Positions 43,393 through 64,000 of a stretch of DNA of 64,000 nucleotides are shown piece by piece. Under the pieces are notes generated by a model. That model was not told where the DNA came from. It saw only the letters and a program-made list of their open reading frames with translations, and did no database searches. Each line of letters starts with the position of its first letter. Position 1 is the first letter of the stretch. A program made the translations under genes and the position numbers. This DNA comes from an uncultured Gammaproteobacteria bacterium (GTDB lineage: Bacteria > Patescibacteriota > Patescibacteriia > UBA9934 > CAZDDW01): positions 921,908-985,907 of the forward strand of contig OZ246408.1 in the NCBI GenBank assembly GCA_965231015.1. Direction: 5' to 3'.

Positions 43393-44878
<1,486 letters not shown>

Positions 44879-44971
44879 CTAAAGGAAAAATCTCGCCATC
44901 GGCGAGACATCCTAGGTCGAGATCTGACGCTGTCAGATCTTCGACGTTGCAATCGCTGAGCAAAGACAAAA

Positions 44972-45000
44972 TCCTCCTTCGCTAAAGCTTCGGAGGACAG
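44972..45000. repeat. 29-nt hairpin repeat copy 2 in 16S downstream spacer
   Basis: identical to 38193..38221. Confidence 0.75.
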
Positions 45001-45325
45001 GCAAAGACCGCCATTTGACGGTCTTTTTGATTTAACTTTTCGAATTTTTATGTATTGTCGGTAATGTTCGAGCTCTGATTCATTGCGAATATTACGGTCG
45101 TGGAAATTTCGTTGCCAAATTTTGATACCTGGTATCTCGAACCTGACAATACGCGTCACAGAAGATTTGAATGATTGAATAATTTGGCCAAGTGATGGTT
45201 GTTTCTGAACCGAATTGATGTTGTTTCGATATTTATTATTTCTAAACACAAAACTCCGCCAAAGGCAGGGCTATCAAATTTTCTTTGCCGGCCCAAAGAA
45301 AACCGGACCATATTTAAAACGAAAA

Positions 45326-45372: not shown

Positions 45373-47820
45373 TCAGGTTTTCGCCGGACCTGAGTTACTG
45401 GAAGGATCATTGTCGTCGTCGGCCGAGTTGCCGCGACGCTTGGACGTGGACTCCGAACCGAGTGAACTCGACTCCTCGATCGAGCCGGAGTCGCCGTAGA
45501 CCGGCAACTCTTGAGCTTCAGTACCGTACTCGGGCATCCCCTCAGTCGTAGCCGCGGCCATGCTGGCCGAGTCATCAGGCTCGTCTTCGTCCGGATCAAC
45601 CAAGGATTGTTCCGAGGTATCCGGCTCGCCTTCGAGCTCGATGCTGCCGTCCGGATCGTGATACGACTCCTCGTCCGAGGGAACAAGCGCGATGCGTTGT
45701 TCCTGACTCGGCGTGCCAAGCGTAGTGTCCTCCCTCACACTGCCCTCGTCGATCTCCTCGGCCACGTCCGTGATGGGCGGTGGCGTGGGATCGACCATGA
45801 CCGGTGCCTCGACCTCTCGGTGCGAAAGCCCGGAGATGTCACGGGTTGGTGGAGGGGTGTCGACCGCTTCGTCCACAGTATCGAGATGAATCGGTGGAGC
45901 CGAATCTCCGACACTCGACTCGTCGTCTTCGTCCTCCGGACACCGACTCGGTCGCTCCTCGGTGGTATCACCCTCGAGTTCCGACTCCGGTTCAATTCCC
46001 GGTTCCGGAATTGGAATGCCGTCCTCGATCGCCTGCAGGCTGGCCGAAAGCGGTATCTCGGGCAGCTTTCCCCTGAAGCGAGGATGCTGCGGCGGCTTGG
46101 CCTCCGGGTCAGACGCATCAACGGTCTGCTCGGAAGGGAGATCCGAAGTGGTGAGCATCTTGAACTCATCAGACTCCGCCTCGTCTCCCTCACCTCCGGA
46201 CGGATCCGAGCTACTGCTCGAATCCGACTCATCAAACGACGAGGGCATGCTCATCATGGCAATCTCCTCGTCGGAGTTGGGCGGACCGTCATCCCGGAAG
46301 GCCTCTCCCTCTTCGTACTCGTCCAGTTCCCCAGCCGGAATGGCCGGTGGTGGAGCGGGTAGTTGCACGAGGGTGAAGTTGATCTTGGTAAGATCAAACT
46401 CTCGGGAGGTGATCTCGGCCTCGATCCTCATCATGGCTTCAACCATAGCCTCGCACAAGTCGATACTGCGGTTGATCGCGATCTTCTGAGCATCTGTGAA
46501 GAAGTCAAACACCTCACTGGCTTCGCCCTGCGGCAGAGCCAGATACACGGCCATGGCCGCGTTATCGAGGCATGCCAACTCTTCGAACTGACGCCGCGAG
46601 GTCGCGGTCGTGGTGCGACCCACGTGCTCGATGATGTCTGCGTGAGGCTGACGTACCGTAGCATGGTACAGGTGGAAGGCATAACGCGCGAACTCGTCGA
46701 GCTCGGAGCATTGACTGTCGGTGAGGGTCTGCTCCGGACTCTGCCGGCCAAGGATGCGCACGATGTCCGCCGGACGGATCATACGCAGATCCATCTGCCG
46801 GGCCACCCGAGCAAACACGTCCGGGTTGTGCTGGTACACGCGGCGCAGGAACTCCACGAGCTCCGGCGCCGAGTAGAACTCGAACGTCCAGACGAGCAGG
46901 CGTACCCACGTATTCAGGAGACGTGGTGGCAGCTCCTGGGGAGACCAGAACGGTTCACCCTGGGAGATGTACATGGCCGTACGGATAGTATCCGACCAAG
47001 GCACGTGCACAGCTGTCACAGCCGGCCGGATTCCGAGAGCCGGATCGATCCCGATCTCGGCCATCACCTGACGGTAGGCGTGATCGACCCCCATGAGGTC
47101 GTACCCCTGGGTAGCAAACACGAAACCGTTTAGATCCCCTTCCTGGTGCAAGAACGGGCTCACCGCCTTGAAGGGCTGGTGTAACTCTGCGGCCTGCAGG
47201 AACGAGACCCGCGTTTCTTCACTCGGTGCAGCGAGCGCCGTGAAATGGCGGGTCATCTCCGGGGATTGGATCCGGGCGAGCGTCAGCACAGCGTCGTCTT
47301 CCGTGTACACCCCAGTGCCGAACCGTCCCGTTGCAGCGTACCCGGGCAATTCCCGCTCGGTCATGATCTCCCGAATCCAGCCGGTCATTTGCCGGTTGAA
47401 CTCCTCGGGCTTCAGCGCCCCGGTCGACTGATCGATCGACATCATGGCGATGTACTCCAGCAGCTGACCAATGGCCGCCTCCTGAAGCTGCATGATGCTA
47501 GCGATCTCGCGGGCCTCGCGCCGGCGGTTCGTATCACGAATCAGCTGGGCTCGCAGGAAGCGCATGCGCTTGGCCTGCTCACCAATGAGGTTGCGATAGA
47601 AGTCCGGGAGTTCGATTCCCTGCTGCTCGGCCAGTCGGTACACCAGATCCGAGAACTCGTGATCCGGATCCCCGGCCGGGCGGTGCGCGATGATGCGCGG
47701 GTCGATAAGCGGTCGGGCACCGTTGATGACCCCGAGCTCCTTGAGGGCCTCGACGAGGTCATCGCCGAGGTAGTGCCGATATACGGCTTCCACTTCTTCG
47801 TTTCTGTCCTGCTCCAACAT
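45373..47820 (-). CDS. hypothetical 815-aa protein in about 63% GC island; folded N-terminal about 500 aa plus about 320-aa acidic S/D/E/P-rich disordered C-terminus
   Basis: single long minus-strand ORF spanning the island with its own terminator; plus-strand ORFs are Arg/Leu-rich antisense artefacts. Confidence 0.6.
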   Translation of the reverse strand: MLEQDRNEEVEAVYRHYLGDDLVEALKELGVINGARPLIDPRIIAHRPAGDPDHEFSDLVYRLAEQQGIELPDFYRNLIGEQAKRMRFLRAQLIRDTNRRREAREIASIMQLQEAAIGQLLEYIAMMSIDQSTGALKPEEFNRQMTGWIREIMTERELPGYAATGRFGTGVYTEDDAVLTLARIQSPEMTRHFTALAAPSEETRVSFLQAAELHQPFKAVSPFLHQEGDLNGFVFATQGYDLMGVDHAYRQVMAEIGIDPALGIRPAVTAVHVPWSDTIRTAMYISQGEPFWSPQELPPRLLNTWVRLLVWTFEFYSAPELVEFLRRVYQHNPDVFARVARQMDLRMIRPADIVRILGRQSPEQTLTDSQCSELDEFARYAFHLYHATVRQPHADIIEHVGRTTTATSRRQFEELACLDNAAMAVYLALPQGEASEVFDFFTDAQKIAINRSIDLCEAMVEAMMRIEAEITSREFDLTKINFTLVQLPAPPPAIPAGELDEYEEGEAFRDDGPPNSDEEIAMMSMPSSFDESDSSSSSDPSGGEGDEAESDEFKMLTTSDLPSEQTVDASDPEAKPPQHPRFRGKLPEIPLSASLQAIEDGIPIPEPGIEPESELEGDTTEERPSRCPEDEDDESSVGDSAPPIHLDTVDEAVDTPPPTRDISGLSHREVEAPVMVDPTPPPITDVAEEIDEGSVREDTTLGTPSQEQRIALVPSDEESYHDPDGSIELEGEPDTSEQSLVDPDEDEPDDSASMAAATTEGMPEYGTEAQELPVYGDSGSIEESSSLGSESTSKRRGNSADDDNDPSSNSGPAKT

Positions 47821-57568: not shown

Positions 57569-60500
57569 TTACTGTTTTTTAACAGGATCTTTCTTTTTGT
57601 CTTCGCCAAGCTCGACCTTGCTCCCTTCTTTGAGCAACTCAACGTCTAAACAGAGTCCTTTCATTTCACGTATCAGAACGTTAAAGGATTCTGGAATGTT
57701 TACCTTCCTAATCGGTTCGCCCTTAATAATCGATTCATAGGCCTTAGAGCGACCGGGTACATCATCGGATTTAATGGTCAGGATCTCCTGCAGAGTGTGA
57801 GATGCCCCATATGCTTCAAGGGCCCACACCTCCATTTCTCCAAATCTTTGTCCACCAAATTGTGCTTTACCACCAAGTGGTTGTTGGGTGATAAGTGAAT
57901 ATGGACCAATTGATCGTTGGTGCATTTTGTCTTCCACCATGTGAGAAAGTTTTAACACATACATGTAACCAACGGTTGATGGATTCTCAAACGGCTCTCC
58001 GGTACGTCCGTCATACAGATTAACTTGAGCACTTTCTGACAAATCCGCCTTTTTCAATTCTTCCTTGATAGCTTCTTCTGTGACACCATTTAACACCGGG
58101 GTCTTTACTCGGTAACCAAGCGCGTTAGCCGCTAGCCCCAAGTGAACCTCGAGGATCTGCCCCAGGTTCATACGCGAAACCACACCAAGCGGAGTTAAAA
58201 TTACATCCACCGGAGTTCCATCTTCAAGGAAAGGCATATCTTGAGCCGGCACGATTCGTGAAACCACACCCTTATTACCGTGCCGTCCGGCCACCTTGTC
58301 TCCCACCTGCATCTTTCTAAGGTCTGCCACTGACACCCGAATGGATTTGATAACACCAGGCGGCAACTTGTCTCCCGCTTCACGAGAGAAGACCATTACA
58401 TCTACCACTTTTCCATGTTCACCGTGCTCCAAATAAAGCGAGCTGTCACGCACGTCGCGGGCTTTTTCTCCAAAGATAGCCCGCAACAATTTTTCTTCAG
58501 CCGAAAGCTCAGTTTCACCCTTTGGCGTAATCTTTCCGACGAGAATATCACCAGATTTTACTTCAGCTCCAATGCGAATCACACCTTCAGCGTCTAGGTT
58601 CTTAAGTTTTTCTTCAGACACGTTTGGAATGTCTGAGGTCACCACTTCAGGTCCAAGCTTGGTATCACGCACATCAATCGTGTAGTGCTCAATATGAACC
58701 GAGGTGTAGCGGTCCTGTTGGACAACTCGATCCGAAATAATAACCGCGTCCTCATAGTTATAACCATCCCAAGCCATAAAGGCGACCAACATATTCTGAC
58801 CAAGAGCTAATTCCCCGTCAGCAACAGCAGCACCATCAGCAATCAAATCTCCCATTTTCACTTTTTGACCAAGCTCCACTGTTGGACGTTGGTTGATTCC
58901 AGTTGAAGCGTTAGAACGAGTAAACTTTTTTAATTCGTACGGATGAACAACTCCCTTACTATCTGTAATCTCGATCAAGTTACCCTGCAATTTGGTGACT
59001 GTTCCAGCTTGTTCAGCAATCACTACGTGACCTGAGTCATAGGCGGCCCGAGCCTCCACACCGGTTCCAATAATCGGTGGGTCAGGCTTGATACAAGGCA
59101 CAGACTGTCGTTGCATGTTGGTTCCCATGAGCGCTCGAGTGGCGTCATCGTGTTCCAAAAATGGAATAAGCGAAGTACCGATCGAAACAATTTGTCGGGA
59201 AGACACATCCATGTACTGCACCTCCTTTGATGGAAGCACCTGCGCTTCTTGATTTTTTCGAGCACCAACAAATTCATCAACCAAATAACCATTTTCATCT
59301 ACTTTTACAGTTGCGGGAACCACTACCGATTTCTCTTCTTTAAAGGCATTCAAATACTCAATATCATCTGTCACCTTCATCTTTCCATTTTCTTCAACTA
59401 CCTTTCTATATGGAGTCTCAATAAACCCGTACTCATTAATCACAGCGTAGGAAGCAAGGTGCCCCACCAAACCAATGTTTGGTCCTTCAGGAGTTGCGAT
59501 CGGACAAATACGACCGTAGTGAGTTGAGTGAACGTCACGCACTTCAAATCCGGCTCGTTCTCGACTAAGTCCACCCGGACCCATAGCTGACAAACGTCTC
59601 TTATGTTCAAGTTCAGCCAGCGGATTAGTCTGATCCATGAACTGTGACAACTGTGAGCTCATAAAAAACTCACGAACTGATCCAATCACCGGACGAGCAT
59701 TGATTAGTCTTCCCGGAGAAAGAGTATCAATGTCTTGTGTAGACATTCGGTCCTTAATAATTCTCTCCATTCGTGCTAGTCCCACACGGAAGCGTCCCTG
59801 AATCAACTCTCCAACCGCTCGTACGCGTCGGTTCCCCAGGTGATCCACGTCATCCGGTTCTTCCTGAGCAATGTTCAAACGGATAATCTCGCGGATGATT
59901 CGAATCAAGTCTTCCTTGGAAAGAATTCGTTTTTCTTCTGGTCCAACTGCATCCTCTGAAATATCCAATCCAAAACGAAGATTAAACTTATATCGACCTA
60001 CCTTATGTAAATCATAACGGTCAAAGTTGAAAAACATTGAATGAATCAACTGACGAGCATTATCAACAGTAGCCAAATCGCCTGGACGGATTCGCTTATA
60101 TACTTCCTTTAATCCTTCGTCCTCATTCTTGGCGGCATCTTTTAAGAGTGTTGCCTCAATGTATTTATTGGTTGGGTGTACATCAACATCCTCGAACAAC
60201 TTCATAATCTCTTCATCTTCGCTCACTCCAAAAGCACGCAAAAGTGAGGTTACTGCCACCTTTCTCTTCCGATCGATCTTAACCCAGATTACATTTTTAG
60301 GATCTGTTTCAAACTCGAGCCAGGCTCCACGGGTTGGGATAATTTTTGCACCATAGTATCGACGTCCGCGATGCACATCAGCGGTGAAGAAAGCCCCGGC
60401 AGAACGAACAAGCTGAGAAACAATTACTCGTTCAATTCCATTGATCACGAATGTTCCACGCGGTGTCATGATCGGCAAATCACCGAGATAAATTTCTTGC

Positions 60501-60826
60501 TCTTTAACCGAACCGGTACGTTTGTTATTTAAAACGGCCTTTACACGAAGCGGTGCTTCGTAGGTAACATTCTTTTCCATTGACGTTCGTTCGTCAAATT
60601 TAGGTTCATCAAGATAGTAGTCAGCCAGCGTCAATTCCAAATCACGACCAATAAAATCGCTGATTGGAGAAACCTCGCCGAATAATTCTCGAATTCCCTC
60701 CTTCAAAAACCAATCGTACGATGCGCGCTGGACTTCAATCAGGTCTGGCAAATCCATGGCATCAACTGCCGCCCCGAAAGTCTTACGCTCCATCTGACTA
60801 GGAGGAGTTTTAAGGAATTTTTTCAT
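57569..60826 (-). CDS. rpoB: DNA-directed RNA polymerase subunit beta
   Basis: canonical beta motifs (e.g. [18 protein letters not shown]). Confidence 0.97.
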
Positions 60827-61303
60827 AATGAGTTAAGAAATGATTATTAAAATTGATTATAAAAACAAAAACCCCGTTCCAAAAACGAAACAGCGTCTAA
60901 AAATGAATTGGTTTCACCTTCCATCTCTCGTGGGGGTTTATGAATAGTCAAATGATTGTTAAAAAACTTCAAATGCAAGGCGTGGGGAAACTGACGAGGA
61001 GGCGTACTGAAACGTACGTCGACGAGTCAGTGGGGACCCACAACGCAGCAATTGAAGGAGTTTTAACGATCATTGGTTACCCGGTTGACCATTCAGCCGT
61101 AGACGGGGTGAAATCATGAGGAGAATATCAAATAAACGAAGGCGTGTCAAGGAAAAGATGGGTGGATAAGGGGTGGAAGAGACGGGGAAAATTAAAACTT
61201 AGCTAAATTTAGCGTATTAATCTATATAAAACACCTTGTCAAGGGTGACTATGCCACAATTTATCCACAAAAAAACAGAATTGACGGTAAGTTTTGCTAA
61301 AGC

Positions 61304-61330
61304 AAGCAAAAAACCACCCGAAGGCGGTTT
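61304..61330 (-). terminator. minus-strand terminator in rpoB upstream region
   Basis: aaccgccttcgggtggtt stem followed (minus strand) by tttttt. Confidence 0.45.
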
Positions 61331-61555
61331 GGATACTCATCCGGAAGCTGGGGGTCCAAGATAACGTCGAAGAGATGCCGAGCCAGTACTTGCGAACGCG
61401 AGGAGAGAGATTTTCCTCACCGAAGTGAGGGGGCGCTCACGGCAATGGTTCAGCGGTGTCATCTCCTTCCCCACAGCTTTCGAATGACTATCTACTGAAA
61501 TCCAATTTTAATCTAATTTTGGTTTTATTTCAAGGACAGATGTTGATGTTTGAAA
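61331..61555 (-). ncRNA. candidate small RNA between two minus-strand terminators
   Basis: no ORF >=60 aa on either strand across 60830..61550; GC-rich stems incl. cctcacttcggtgagg tetraloop hairpin. Confidence 0.2.
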
Positions 61556-61561
61556 AAATTT

Positions 61562-61606
61562 CCCGGCAGAGCTGATCGAGGTCGACCAGATGCCGGGGTT
61601 TCCAAG
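61562..61606 (-). terminator. terminator of lipoprotein gene
   Basis: ccggcag...ctgccgg then aattttttc on minus strand. Confidence 0.45.
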
Positions 61607-62353
61607 TTATTCTTGCTCCGCCAGATAGCGGGTTTCTATCATCTGCGAGATCTCGTTACCGGCCGCGACCATGAAGTCTTGTACTTCAACTCCAGCCGCA
61701 GTGCCACCAACAAGAATCTCATCCTCTACTACATTACCTGATGGACAATCCAACATGCTAACGACCGGCACCTCACAAGTGTGGGCCATTCCAGGCAAGC
61801 TTACGTGACCACCTTCGTGAACAATGTCAGAAACCAAGTTAGCGGTTGAGGAGGTTCCACTGACCATCTGAGCGATTAACGGACAGGACCAAGTGCAGTG
61901 CATGCCCCAGTTAACCGCGTGAGTGCACCTGATGCTGTAACGCGGATAATAGGTTTCCATGAATTCACGACCACCACCCCAGTAGCACTCGTCGATATCA
62001 TCTTCAGTGATGATCGTTGGGTCAAAGAAGGGCTCGATGTTTTCAGCTACCGGCAGAACCAAACGCTTTTCCGCCTTGTAAACCTGGGCACGAGAGGGAG
62101 CGTCGTCGGCAAAATAGGCGCAAGTGATTTCGAAGTCTTCCACAGCCATGATCCTTTCGAGAACCGTGACCCGCGGAATCTGGTCCCCCATCATCTCCTC
62201 GAGCTGTTGCTGAATCTCCGACTCGAAGTGGTAGGCCTCTTCATATGCCTGATCGACCCGCTCGAGTTCGTAGTCAGAACACTCGTATTCATGCTTCCAT
62301 TCGTCAGAACATCCAGAAATCATAACAAAAATAGAAAAAAGAACTCGTCTCAT
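61607..62353 (-). CDS. Cys-rich lipoprotein, unknown function
   Basis: signal plus lipobox VMISGCSDE; about 52% GC. Confidence 0.55.
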   Translation of the reverse strand: MRRVLFSIFVMISGCSDEWKHEYECSDYELERVDQAYEEAYHFESEIQQQLEEMMGDQIPRVTVLERIMAVEDFEITCAYFADDAPSRAQVYKAEKRLVLPVAENIEPFFDPTIITEDDIDECYWGGGREFMETYYPRYSIRCTHAVNWGMHCTWSCPLIAQMVSGTSSTANLVSDIVHEGGHVSLPGMAHTCEVPVVSMLDCPSGNVVEDEILVGGTAAGVEVQDFMVAAGNEISQMIETRYLAEQE

Positions 62354-62437
62354 CTCCCCTCCAGATTTTGGTCAACCTCTAGACTCGACATCTCGAATTC
62401 AGAGGTTGGCCCTCCTGCGTTACGTCGGCAGAAGGGG

Positions 62438-62746
62438 CTAAGGTTTGAGTGCTTGCTTTTGACGATTGAAATGTTCGGTCAAGACCATAGCCTCGGCATG
62501 TTGCCACATGGTCTTTTCTACTTCTGTGGCCAACAACGAAGATATTGACCAGTGAAACCCTTCACGCATACACTCTTCGATCAACAACGAAGCGTACAGG
62601 TGAAAGTATGGGTCAAGCACTCCTCGAGCTGAGAGCTTTCGGATTTTTATCCGTCTACCCATCGTCACAAAGACTTCGATCATGTCTCCACCCCTTCGTC
62701 CGAGCTGTATTCTCGATATTATATCAAGTTCACAGGTCGGTCCCAC
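62438..62746 (-). CDS. hypothetical small protein
   Basis: ORF only. Confidence 0.3.
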   Translation of the reverse strand: MGPTCELDIISRIQLGRRGGDMIEVFVTMGRRIKIRKLSARGVLDPYFHLYASLLIEECMREGFHWSISSLLATEVEKTMWQHAEAMVLTEHFNRQKQALKP

Positions 62747-62778
62747 AGCCGAGAATTGGCTGTGGGGTCCGTCGCGAG

Positions 62779-63318
62779 TTAGGCCGCGTCATCGATGGTG
62801 ATGCGACCGTCCCTGCGGAAGGAAGCCAGCTTGAGGCGCTGACTTAGGCCTGGCCAAAACCTTCTGACCACGCCGAGACCAAAGGCCGCGACAAAGTACT
62901 TGGCCTTGACCCGATACATGTTGTCACCCTGGAAGGCGTAGAGAGCATGTCCGAATCTGGCCGCAGTAATGACCAGATTTCGCACTGACTGGTTACCAAC
63001 ATGTTTGATCAACCGAGCCTGGTTGAGTGCACTTAGTATCTCGAGCGCAATCTCGGATACGAAGGCCCCGTCCATCACGCGGTAGATCAAGTTCAGCCAA
63101 TAGATGACCTCGAGCTTCATGGGCTGTTCGATGTCTCTGATCACGTCGTTCAAACACCCGAACAACTCTTCATCAGTACAAGCCTGGCTTCCGAGCGTCT
63201 CGGCCAGGTCGCCATGCTCCCTGTTGGCGTCCAGAAAACGGTCAACCCACTCTATTCTTTCTCGTAATTCTCCTTCAGCTCGCGGGTCCATATTAACCTC
63301 CTGACCAAAGATACACAT
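62779..63318 (-). CDS. hypothetical protein immediately downstream of RT gene
   Basis: ORF; probable start MDPRAEGEL; about 52% GC unlike the RT gene. Confidence 0.45.
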   Translation of the reverse strand: MCIFGQEVNMDPRAEGELRERIEWVDRFLDANREHGDLAETLGSQACTDEELFGCLNDVIRDIEQPMKLEVIYWLNLIYRVMDGAFVSEIALEILSALNQARLIKHVGNQSVRNLVITAARFGHALYAFQGDNMYRVKAKYFVAAFGLGVVRRFWPGLSQRLKLASFRRDGRITIDDAA

Positions 63319-63380
63319 TTTGAAGGTGATTCGTCACACATTGACGAAACATCAAAGACTACTATATTTTAGCTAAATTG

Positions 63381-64000
63381 TCAAGGTAAAACCTTTAAAA
63401 AAAGTTTATTTTTTATCCTCTTCTGCAACTCGTGCATGTTGGCATGTGAACATATCCCAATATAAGAACTCTTGTTTTCTTGATTCACATTTCGAATCAT
63501 TCTCTTCACAGTTTTGTTTCGAAGTACCGTTGAATGTTCCAATAATACATAGCCAACAAAATCAATTCCTTGAGCTGGGGTTCGTATTAAAGTCTTATCT
63601 GGATGGACAGATAAGCGTAATTTTGTTTGCAAATAATCTTGTATGATTGGTATCAGTTGCTCGAGGTGACACATGTCCTGGTGTAAAATCAAGAAATCAT
63701 CACAGTAACGAAGATAATACCTTTCTTTGAGCTCGAACTTCACAAAATGGTCGAGCTCATGCATGTAAACATTAGCAAATAGCTGGCTGGTCAGATTACC
63801 CAAAGGAATACCTTTGTGTTGACCAACGGAAAAACTTGAAATGATCTTCTGCAACAATTTCAAACTACGGTTGCAGGATATTTGTTTTGTTAATAAACTC
63901 ATTAGAACACTATGGTCAACACTAGCAAAGTATTTCTTGATATCACACTTAAGTGCATAAACGGTTCTGGTGTTGTTGGACGAAGCCTTGTTTATAAAGC
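63381..64000 (-). CDS. reverse transcriptase (group II intron / retron-like), 5' end outside window
   Basis: RT motifs on minus strand: KCDIKKYFASVDHSVL (motif 2), GIPLGNLTSQLFANVYMHELD (motif 4), YLRYCDDFLIL (motif 5 YxDD), QGIDFVGYVL; frame stays open upstream of listed Met through coordinate 64000. Confidence 0.75.
   Translation of the reverse strand, partial: FINKASSNNTRTVYALKCDIKKYFASVDHSVLMSLLTKQISCNRSLKLLQKIISSFSVGQHKGIPLGNLTSQLFANVYMHELDHFVKFELKERYYLRYCDDFLILHQDMCHLEQLIPIIQDYLQTKLRLSVHPDKTLIRTPAQGIDFVGYVLLEHSTVLRNKTVKRMIRNVNQENKSSYIGICSHANMHELQKRIKNKLFLKVLP

Follow-up and report, generated by a model that had tools for sequence, protein, structure and literature searches.

The window, i.e. 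the 64,000-nt stretch of DNA that was analysed, ends within a reverse transcriptase (RT) gene and belongs to the roughly 1-Mb genome of a Patescibacteria member (Uhrbacteria-like). Translation of 63381..63998 on the minus strand gave 205 residues followed by a stop codon, including the stretches DIKKYFASVDH, GIPLGNLTSQLFANVYMHELDHF, YLRYCDDF and GIDFVGY, and the fragment matched Pfam RVT_1 (E = 7e-17). The reading frame is open up to the window edge, hence the gene is cut by it. At the other end, 54 residues remain after GIDFVGY, which shows that the short C-terminus of the RT is real. A preliminary description of this DNA had reported minus-strand RT motifs in AT-rich DNA running off position 64000, with about 60 residues after motif 7, and both observations hold: the RT fragment has a GC content of 35.8%, compared to a window mean of 44.7% (sd 5.3, 600-nt windows). 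In the NCBI and Logan records the full RT ORF comprises 312 aa from a TTG codon, and it would be longer with a poly-G tract in frame (see below). YLRYCDDF and LGNLTSQ are invariant across the RT clade, and the C-terminus extends six codons beyond the stop position of the closest relatives.

Downstream of the RT gene, three ORFs (p170, p81 and p248, Table 1) follow on the same strand, as previously described, and the cysteine-rich lipoprotein named at that stage corresponds to p248. Each ORF is preceded by a Shine–Dalgarno-like sequence, as read from the DNA, and the same three genes were called in the Logan assembly. The hairpin behind p248 has a loop longer than the 8 nt allowed in the consensus scan, which therefore did not list it. 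The GC content of 61607..63318 is 51.4%, close to the value of about 52% first noted for the switch in composition after the RT. Still, such a rise is not unique in the window, as GC is equally high or higher at 13.3–13.9 kb, 23.1–24 kb, 29.1–29.7 kb and especially 45.1–48 kb (62%). A search of 5.8 billion proteins returned p170 itself and one homologue with 56% identity; on one other metagenome contig (L085), the p170 homologue is directly followed by a homologue of p81 (51% identical). p248 is absent from L085, and a search of 1.84 billion representatives at E < 1e-10 retrieved no protein other than p248 itself. Searches of all three proteins against Pfam, NCBIfam, PADLOC and PHROGs gave sub-threshold noise only. 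Matches of p248 to a HExxH hydroxylase (E = 0.086) and of the 102-aa version of p81 to AbrB (E = 0.04) were rejected as insignificant, and a single-sequence AF2 model of p248 was unusable (pLDDT 37). Upstream of rpoB, at 61305..61497 on the minus strand, a conserved candidate small RNA gene was observed; Rfam returned chance matches only for 60800–61650 at E ≤ 10.

Table 1. Features of the RT locus. Positions refer to the window unless preceded by L001, the contig that continues it.
Feature	Position	Strand	Basis or remark
RT gene, very probably of DGR type, 3′ two-thirds (205 codons and stop)	63381..64000	-	RVT_1 match, translation
30-nt repeat R (GGTTTTACCTTGACAATTTAGCTAAAATAT)	63364..63393	-	identical copy at L001:1-30
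ORF p170, 170 aa (179 aa from upstream ATG at 63318)	62779..63291	-	orphan; no family match
ORF p81, 81 aa (102 aa from GTG at 62746)	62438..62683	-	orphan; no Pfam match
ORF p248, 248 aa, predicted lipoprotein (MISGC lipobox, 9 Cys, HEGGH motif)	61607..62353	-	no homologue found
Hairpin CCCGGCA...TGCCGGG with T-run, probable terminator of the three-gene operon	61552..61598	-	read from sequence
Variable repeat (VR), 127 nt, 3′ end of target	L001:810-936		
Template repeat (TR), 127 nt	L001:1357-1483		

Sequence past position 64000 was taken from Logan contig L001, and short-read contigs of the same population came from SRR7048221, SRR7048224 and SRR7048225. L001 is 100% identical to the window over an overlap of 635 nt, with no mismatch in the 627 nt compared. 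Moreover, a single NCBI contig (1,002,985 nt) carries the records of the 312-aa RT, a 270-aa target protein, p170, p248 and the RpoB protein. Read in the orientation of the RT, the cassette consists of promoter R, the gene of the 270-aa target with the 127-nt VR, a spacer of 420 nt, the 127-nt TR, an inverted avd gene, and the RT gene. The partners of the RT (avd, TR, and target with VR) are located upstream of it and outside the window. TR/VR repeats beyond position 64000 had been listed as something to seek, and L001 provided them. The two repeats differ at 21 positions, every one of which is an adenine in TR (A>T 14, A>G 5, A>C 2), and no other drift is seen in 127 nt. All 21 differences fall on codon position 1 or 2, the affected TR codons including AAC (6) and AAT (2). 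VR ends 4 nt before the stop codon of the target ORF; the last 20 nt of TR and VR, where DGRs carry IMH* and IMH, respectively, are the same GC-rich run (CTCGGTGCCTGCTTCCCGGG), and the flanks diverge directly past the repeats. The avd product was recognised by the Pfam bAvd model (1.1e-14, 55.3 bits against a cut-off of 40). The target belongs to a Patescibacteria family with at least 105 members that lacks a Pfam domain. In Foldseek, its confidently predicted model (pLDDT 92) had no significant counterpart among DGR targets of the C-type lectin or Ig type, the usual folds. Within the window, short repeats in 60000–64000 were at chance level only, without a TR/VR pair. When the whole window was scanned with the real TR, adenines masked, no segment exceeded a match of about 46%, hence these 64 kb hold no second, remote target.

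DGRs are well-known systems in which error-prone copying rewrites the tip of one protein gene. Given the family similarity of the RT, the presence of Avd and of the LGNLTSQ motif, and a TR/VR pair that differs only at adenines, the RT at the window edge is very probably the reverse transcriptase of a chromosomal DGR in a Patescibacteria genome, the remaining cassette of which lies just past position 64000. In a structure-database comparison, the best PDB relative of the RT was 8ub7_A (328-aa chain; 3e-48 over residues 4–278), with GIPIGSLTSQLFANVY placed opposite GIPLGNLTSQLFANVY and motif 4 of the IGxxxSQ type aligned; group II intron RTs and retron-type RTs scored 6e-21 and 1e-17, respectively. 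The PDB names this chain only "Reverse transcriptase"; we take it to be the bRT of the Bordetella phage, and the 8ub7 series to represent the bRT–Avd complex. LGNLTSQ matches the DGR form of motif 4, [ILV]GxxxSQ. Phage relatives of the RT include VHML, VP585, ANMV-1 and Bordetella phages, which are known to bear DGRs. By homology with BPP-1, TR would be transcribed and copied into cDNA by the RT–Avd complex, with misincorporation opposite template adenines. The mutagenised cDNA would then replace VR, and within the last 40 residues of the target a maximum of 17 codons, with AAC and AAT among the TR codons, may be re-randomised. Mutagenic retrohoming is presumably active.

Comparison with the BPP-1 DGR reveals similarities beyond the alignment of the RT over 275 residues, which includes motif 4 as (I/L)GxLTSQLFANVY. 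Both systems have an accessory protein of the Avd family, adenine-only TR/VR differences, and VR at the 3′ end of the target ORF. Conversely, avd is inverted and positioned between TR and RT (mtd-avd-TR-brt in BPP-1), the catalytic box reads YCDD instead of YMDD, and the host is a cellular chromosome and not a phage, the neighbouring ORFs being without PHROG matches. Furthermore, the target is not Mtd-like and has no Foldseek match to solved C-type-lectin targets. Among related loci, an A-biased TR/VR pair adjoins the RT in 28 out of 40, Avd is encoded in most of 80, and the nearest relatives (L003–L020 and L088) share the TR-(avd)-RT architecture. This arrangement, which is common in Patescibacteria, has been published as architecture B3 for DGRs of the CPR set (Wu et al. 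2018, Nucleic Acids Res 46:11, PMC5758913). The published B3 DGRs and the present one agree in order and orientation (target with 3′ VR, TR, reverse-strand avd, RT), in the Patescibacteria host, in being a chromosomal element, and in a target devoid of a recognisable domain. Nothing essential differs, and the poly-G tract and the bracketing direct repeats reported below are not mentioned in the passages of PMC5758913 consulted. [quoted passage not shown]

The 5′ end of the RT gene carries a poly-G tract of variable length (L001:1929-1938), ranging from 9 to at least 13 G in the subclade. In two of the three samples the tract is G10, which leaves a TGA just upstream in the RT frame and TTG as the first start codon. 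Initiation at TTG drops about 28 conserved N-terminal residues that align to about 1–20 of 8ub7_A. With G10, this N-terminal part has no in-frame start, and in those genomes the DGR may therefore be switched off or in decay. The third sample has G11, which restores an in-frame start and is the sole difference in 2043 nt. One explanation is that the DGR is a decaying, inactive relic whose RT has lost its proper start, in line with the truncated version in the G10 samples and with the NCBI record, which calls the 312-aa version only. We regard this as unlikely, since the TR/VR differences are confined to adenines, the catalytic motifs of the RT are intact and identical to those of its relatives, and the sister sample regains the start with nothing else changed. 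Additionally, the start of one contig lies a single base past the last VR position templated by an adenine, which is the pattern expected of a polymorphic VR in a k=31 graph. A different, tentative possibility is that the poly-G tract acts as a slipped-strand on/off switch of the mutagenic RT, which would make diversity generation phase-variable in this subclade of Patescibacteria DGRs. A link between a DGR and homopolymer phase variation was not found in the literature searched.

Repeat R spans the last four RT codons, the stop codon, a -35 element (TTGACA) and the spacer. It occurs once in the window, where it precedes the three-gene operon (0 copies expected by chance). The identical copy on L001 is located upstream of the target gene, hence the cassette is bracketed by direct repeats. 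Such repeats on both sides of the 2.9-kb cassette, present in this genome and also in a relative, would be compatible with the cassette moving or being excised as a unit. However, flanking direct repeats are not a clade trait, as none were found in 11 out of 14 relatives; the exceptions are L018, with duplicated target genes, and L088, with a duplicated ruvB 5′ region. Flanking matches of only 13–14 nt in L003 and L012 were treated as chance. The L001 copy is part of a TTGACA-17-TATATT promoter with a TG element (11/12 promoter matches). The window copy gives a weaker promoter-like match with TAGTCT or TATAGT as -10 element. From this duplicated segment of the target promoter the three-gene operon would start, to end at the hairpin near 61560.

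The position of R invites the question of whether the operon is functionally coupled to the DGR, either by co-regulation via R or through envelope proteins that act together with the diversified protein, as opposed to a retron-type effector. As the same 30-nt -35/spacer segment precedes the target gene and p170, some co-regulation is conceivable. Moreover, the operon directly adjoins the RT, p248 is a predicted lipoprotein, and the GC content of the operon, like that of the target gene, is above that of the genome. Against this, the promoter segment of 30 nt is all that the two transcription units have in common, with different -10 regions. Homologues of the three ORFs were not found in any of the 80 related DGR loci, and the proteins share no sequence similarity with the target. 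The lack of a DGR on L085 is uninformative in this respect, as the contig ends 70 nt upstream of the p170 homologue. The TR scan of the window detected no VR in the three ORFs either. Functional coupling is accordingly considered improbable. The three GC-richer ORFs are a separate operon of orphan genes, neighbours of the RT and not effectors, and they probably have no role in retrohoming.

In the preliminary description the RT was compared to retron or other defence-type RTs (DRT/UG, Abi), with the 170-aa ORF at 62779–63318 as candidate effector. Like retrons of the St85 RT family (NF038233), the locus has an RT of ~300 aa without endonuclease or maturase domains and an adjacent non-coding RNA template. 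Weak sub-threshold similarity to Drt3a, the retron St85 RT and several PADLOC RT_UG models was detected, and some databases name relatives "retron-type reverse transcriptase". The curated models are nevertheless far from their cut-offs for retrons (NF038233, 57.8 bits vs. 235; NF042941, 21.2 vs. 600) and for defence RTs (Drt3a, 69.7 vs. 200; Drt2, 63.3 vs. 390; Drt5, 34.6 vs. 550; AbiA, 24.3 vs. 250), the PADLOC matches reflect the generic RT core, and the DGR-type chain 8ub7_A is much closer. An msr/msd-type RNA beyond position 64000 had been suggested as a test, as had group II domains V/VI. The Rfam search of L001 (2.9 kb including the region upstream of the RT) returned no RNA family at E ≤ 1, and neither an msr/msd-type element nor an intron domain V/VI was seen; Avd and a TR/VR pair are present instead. 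As for the proposed effector, p170 has no PADLOC match, a single homologue in the protein search, and no counterpart beside any of the 80 related RTs. Behind the closest RTs, with 84%, 83% and 75% identity, lie GroES/GroEL, a 169-aa ORF with GIY-YIG and RecG, and an unrelated 368-aa ORF, respectively. No effector is conserved. A retron or defence system is very improbable, and the assignment to a DGR is retained.

The RT had also been considered as the end of an intron next to an acquired block, i.e. as a group II intron ORF, either a remnant or its 3′ end, beside an independently acquired GC-rich segment. Fingers and palm are homologous to those of group II intron RTs (GsI-IIC RT 6ar1, 6e-21; LtrA 5g2x, 2.4e-18), the top NCBIfam match by E-value is the group II RT/maturase model TIGR04416 (6e-28), several database names of relatives read "reverse transcriptase/maturase", and composition changes sharply at the RT stop codon. 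Yet the TIGR04416 score of 97.9 bits is below the cut-off (300) and the model is only partly covered, the match ending at profile position 295 of 353, and an X/maturase, DNA-binding or En domain is lacking. Rfam identified only 16S rRNA and tRNAs in the window at the gathering threshold, without an intron domain. In 13 out of 13 clade cassettes examined, an AT-rich RT/avd unit is found next to a GC-rich neighbour (the target), hence the GC step marks no intron boundary. The short C-terminus and the lack of intron RNA in the window and its upstream continuation bear out the earlier view, which was against an ordinary group II intron ORF, and a group II remnant has a next to negligible probability.

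In summary, a DGR should be the first reading when an edge-cut RT is found beside GC-rich orphan genes in Patescibacteria, as the partners of a DGR RT sit on its other side and the step in composition is a property of the cassette. The locus adds one more apparently intact DGR, with a target whose fold is confidently predicted and has no match in the libraries searched. If the poly-G tract does toggle the RT, a second, stochastic switch would control targeted hypermutation in these bacteria with their small genomes.

The edge-cut reverse transcriptase (RT) gene belongs to a typical Patescibacteria diversity-generating retroelement (DGR), with the defining features template repeat (TR), variable repeat (VR), target, Avd and RT. 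The fragment inside the window translates into 205 residues ending in a stop, with the motifs DIKKYFASVDH, GIPLGNLTSQLFANVYMHELDHF, YLRYCDDF and GIDFVGY and a Pfam RVT_1 match at 7e-17. Its frame is open up to the window edge, only 54 residues lie C-terminal to GIDFVGY, and its GC content is 35.8% versus a window average of 44.7%. Thus, the preliminary description of the RT motifs, the short C-terminus, the GC switch and the three minus-strand genes (p170, p81 and p248) was accurate in every checkable detail. The continuation of the gene is found on L001, a 2957-nt Logan contig of the same population (run SRR7048225), which encodes an RT identical to that of the window and matches its DNA over the whole overlap (627 nt compared, no mismatch). 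One NCBI contig, 1,002,985 nt long, has the 312-aa RT, the 270-aa target, p170, p248 and rpoB all recorded on it, which places the L001 continuation in the same genome. The TR/VR repeats of a DGR, listed beforehand as something to look for past 64000, are present on L001. The two copies differ at 21 positions, all of them TR adenines (A>T 14, A>G 5, A>C 2). Each lies at the first or second position of its codon, the TR codons concerned including six AAC and two AAT, and the VR ends four bases before the target stop codon.

Location of the cassette elements and neighbouring features. Plain numbers are window coordinates (66323 - L001 position for L001); L001 elements follow in RT orientation, and other L numbers are compared loci.
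Feature	Position	Strand	Remarks
Strong promoter-like site	L001:10-38		TTGACA-17-TATATT
Target gene	L001:128-940		270-aa ORF (P0126)
VR (repeat copy 1)	L001:810-936
TR (repeat copy 2)	L001:1357-1483
avd	L001:1538-1903	opposite to RT	bAvd family, Pfam 1.1e-14
RT gene	L001:2004-2942
RT fragment in window	63381..63998	-	translated part
Repeat R, upstream of target	L001:1-30
Repeat R, after RT	63393..63364	-
p170	62779..63291	-	170 aa, GC 54.6%
p81	62438..62683	-	81 aa (102 aa from GTG), GC 45.9%
p248	61607..62353	-	248 aa, GC 50.5%
Candidate small RNA gene	61305..61497	-	~150-nt core
Its promoter-like site	61533..61505		TTGAAA-17-TAAAAT
Its terminator	61330..61311		hairpin and T-run
rpoB start	60826
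tRNAs	48.3-50.8 kb	opposite to 16S rRNA
815-aa ORF	45373..47820	-	about 62% GC
ORF at 16S rRNA 3' end	44761..45249	-
16S rRNA gene	43394..44878	+
Poly-G tract	L001:1929-1938		G10; = 64385..64394, outside window
Poly-G tract, sister samples	L091:566, L090:1014		G10, G11
Poly-G tract, relatives	L086:473, L088:4686, L002:1, L003:4483, L006:3641, L008:391, L010:4242, L013:3680, L016:9946
Flanking repeats of the L088 cassette	L088:2546-2650, L088:5768-6010		imperfect; include second ruvB 5' end, exact 18-mer
Logan contigs of SRR7048225	L084 49824..61003, L083 60978..63393, L001 from 63366 outward

Comparison of the full-length RT with all PDB sequences identified 8ub7_A as best relative, a 328-aa chain named "Reverse transcriptase" (3e-48 over 275 residues), which from its sequence we take to be the bRT of a Bordetella phage. 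In the alignment, GIPLGNLTSQLFANVY sits on GIPIGSLTSQLFANVY. Relatives in phage genomes include those of the DGR-bearing phages VHML, VP585, ANMV-1 and Bordetella phages, and about 3000 homologues of about 290-350 aa come mainly from Patescibacteria. Curated models of group II intron RT/maturases, retron RTs, DRT types and AbiA gave RT-core matches only, all far under their cut-offs. As had been suspected, the gene is not an ordinary group II intron ORF (TIGR04416 score 97.9 versus a cut-off of 300); intron RTs reached 6e-21 in the PDB comparison. The proposed likeness to retron RTs is not borne out, the retron St85 model scoring 57.8 versus a cut-off of 235 and retron-type RTs reaching about 1e-17 versus 3e-48 for 8ub7_A.

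Of the 40 top related loci in GTDB genomes, 28 have an adenine-biased TR/VR pair beside the RT, and Avd is encoded in most of 80 related loci. The nearest Patescibacteria relatives share the order VR, TR, inverted avd, RT. This arrangement, also found here, is architecture B3, "TR-(avd)-RT", of the survey by Wu et al. (PMC5758913), and the element therefore belongs to a well-described kind. The target family has 105 or more members, nearly all of them patescibacterial, and no Pfam domain. An AlphaFold model of the target, based on 36 members of the family, is confident (pLDDT 92.2, pTM 0.81), and a Foldseek search with it returned nothing significant in PDB or BFVD.

The conserved partners of the RT are located upstream, not downstream, of it. 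An effector directly downstream, suggested for 62779-63318, is contradicted by the genes that follow the closest RTs, namely GroES and GroEL (L086, RT identity 84%), a 169-aa ORF, GIY-YIG and RecG (L002, 83%) and an unrelated 368-aa ORF (L088, 75%), and by the absence of p170, as of p81 and p248, from all 80 related DGR loci. Each of the three ORFs is preceded by a Shine-Dalgarno-like sequence, and p248 contains a lipobox, nine cysteines and a HEGGH motif. None has a significant match in Pfam, NCBIfam, PADLOC or PHROGs or any likeness to the DGR target, and an adenine-masked scan with the TR revealed no VR across the whole window. Exactly one homologue of p170 (56% identity) was found in 5.8 billion proteins, directly followed on the same 1.5-kb metagenome contig by the one homologue of p81; for p248 there was none among 1.84 billion cluster representatives. 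In summary, p170-p81-p248 is an operon of orphan genes and an unrelated neighbour of the DGR.

The step from the AT-rich RT to its GC-rich neighbour is no evidence of separate acquisition, as had been considered, because a GC-rich target stands beside AT-rich RT and avd in 13 of 13 clade cassettes measured (from L001, L003-L020 and L088). The target exceeds RT + avd of its own cassette by 2 to 30 GC points, by >10 points in 12 of the 13, and RT + avd fall under the locus average. For the present cassette the values are 62% (target, GC3 83%) and 36% (RT + avd); the three ORFs are intermediate, and several further window stretches are as GC-rich or more so. Within the window, GC content peaks in an 815-aa ORF with a very acidic, low-complexity C-terminal half and no Pfam or PHROG match, located shortly after the 16S rRNA gene. 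Another ORF overlaps the 3' end of this rRNA gene, and the 19 kb after it hold no 23S rRNA gene, just tRNAs on the opposite strand.

The operon does have one real link to the cassette, a perfectly repeated 30-nt sequence, R (GGTTTTACCTTGACAATTTAGCTAAAATAT), found directly after the RT and directly upstream of the target, so that direct repeats flank the cassette on both sides. R comprises the -35 box plus spacer of the target promoter. Because a relative whose RT is 75% identical shows a similar promoter and almost the same 5' UTR, the native copy is the upstream one. The RT frame extends six codons (FLKVLP) beyond the stop point of its closest relatives into the downstream copy, and what precedes the three-gene operon is thus a duplicated piece of promoter, with another -10 region. 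We read the flanking repeats as the footprint of cassette insertion or rearrangement; co-regulation of target and operon via R is a minor possibility. Imperfect flanking repeats also surround the L088 cassette, and nothing comparable was seen in 11 of 14 relatives checked. The SRR7048225 contigs break exactly at 63364..63393, because of R, and at 60978..61003, where the window contains no repeat; the latter break may reflect differences between strains in the region upstream of rpoB.

Between the operon and rpoB lies a candidate stand-alone small RNA gene. Its core is 87% identical to L085 over 160 nt (the neighbouring L085 protein is only 56% identical), and it is predicted to form an extended, rod-shaped hairpin (-81.8 kcal/mol, z = -5.3) in which a CU-rich stretch, AAAAUCUCUCUCCUC, is left unpaired. 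Rfam gave no match to this region even at E<=10, and only two distinct sequences of the gene were found.

With regard to activity, the adenine-only TR/VR differences, free of other drift, and the intact catalytic motifs of the RT would both speak for an active element. Against this would stand the G10 tract at the RT 5' end, which lacks a proper start: as assembled, a TGA lies just upstream in the RT frame and no start codon precedes a TTG, whose use removes about 28 conserved N-terminal residues. G9, G11 or G12 would each restore an upstream start. Three samples of the population carry G10, G10 and G11, the extra G being the only difference in 2043 nt. Nine relatives retain the tract at this position, always as a homopolymer (9 to at least 13 G), and in all eight of them that are checkable a start codon is in frame with it; G or C runs of 7 or more are, by contrast, absent from the 64-kb window. 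The tract could be a phase-variable switch or homopolymer noise of short-read assemblies; no paper connecting DGRs with phase variation of homopolymers turned up in the literature library searched. A further hint of element activity comes from the sister contig L090, whose first base, L001:916, follows directly on 915, the last VR position templated by an adenine; a polymorphism at 915 would make a k=31 assembly graph begin the contig exactly there.
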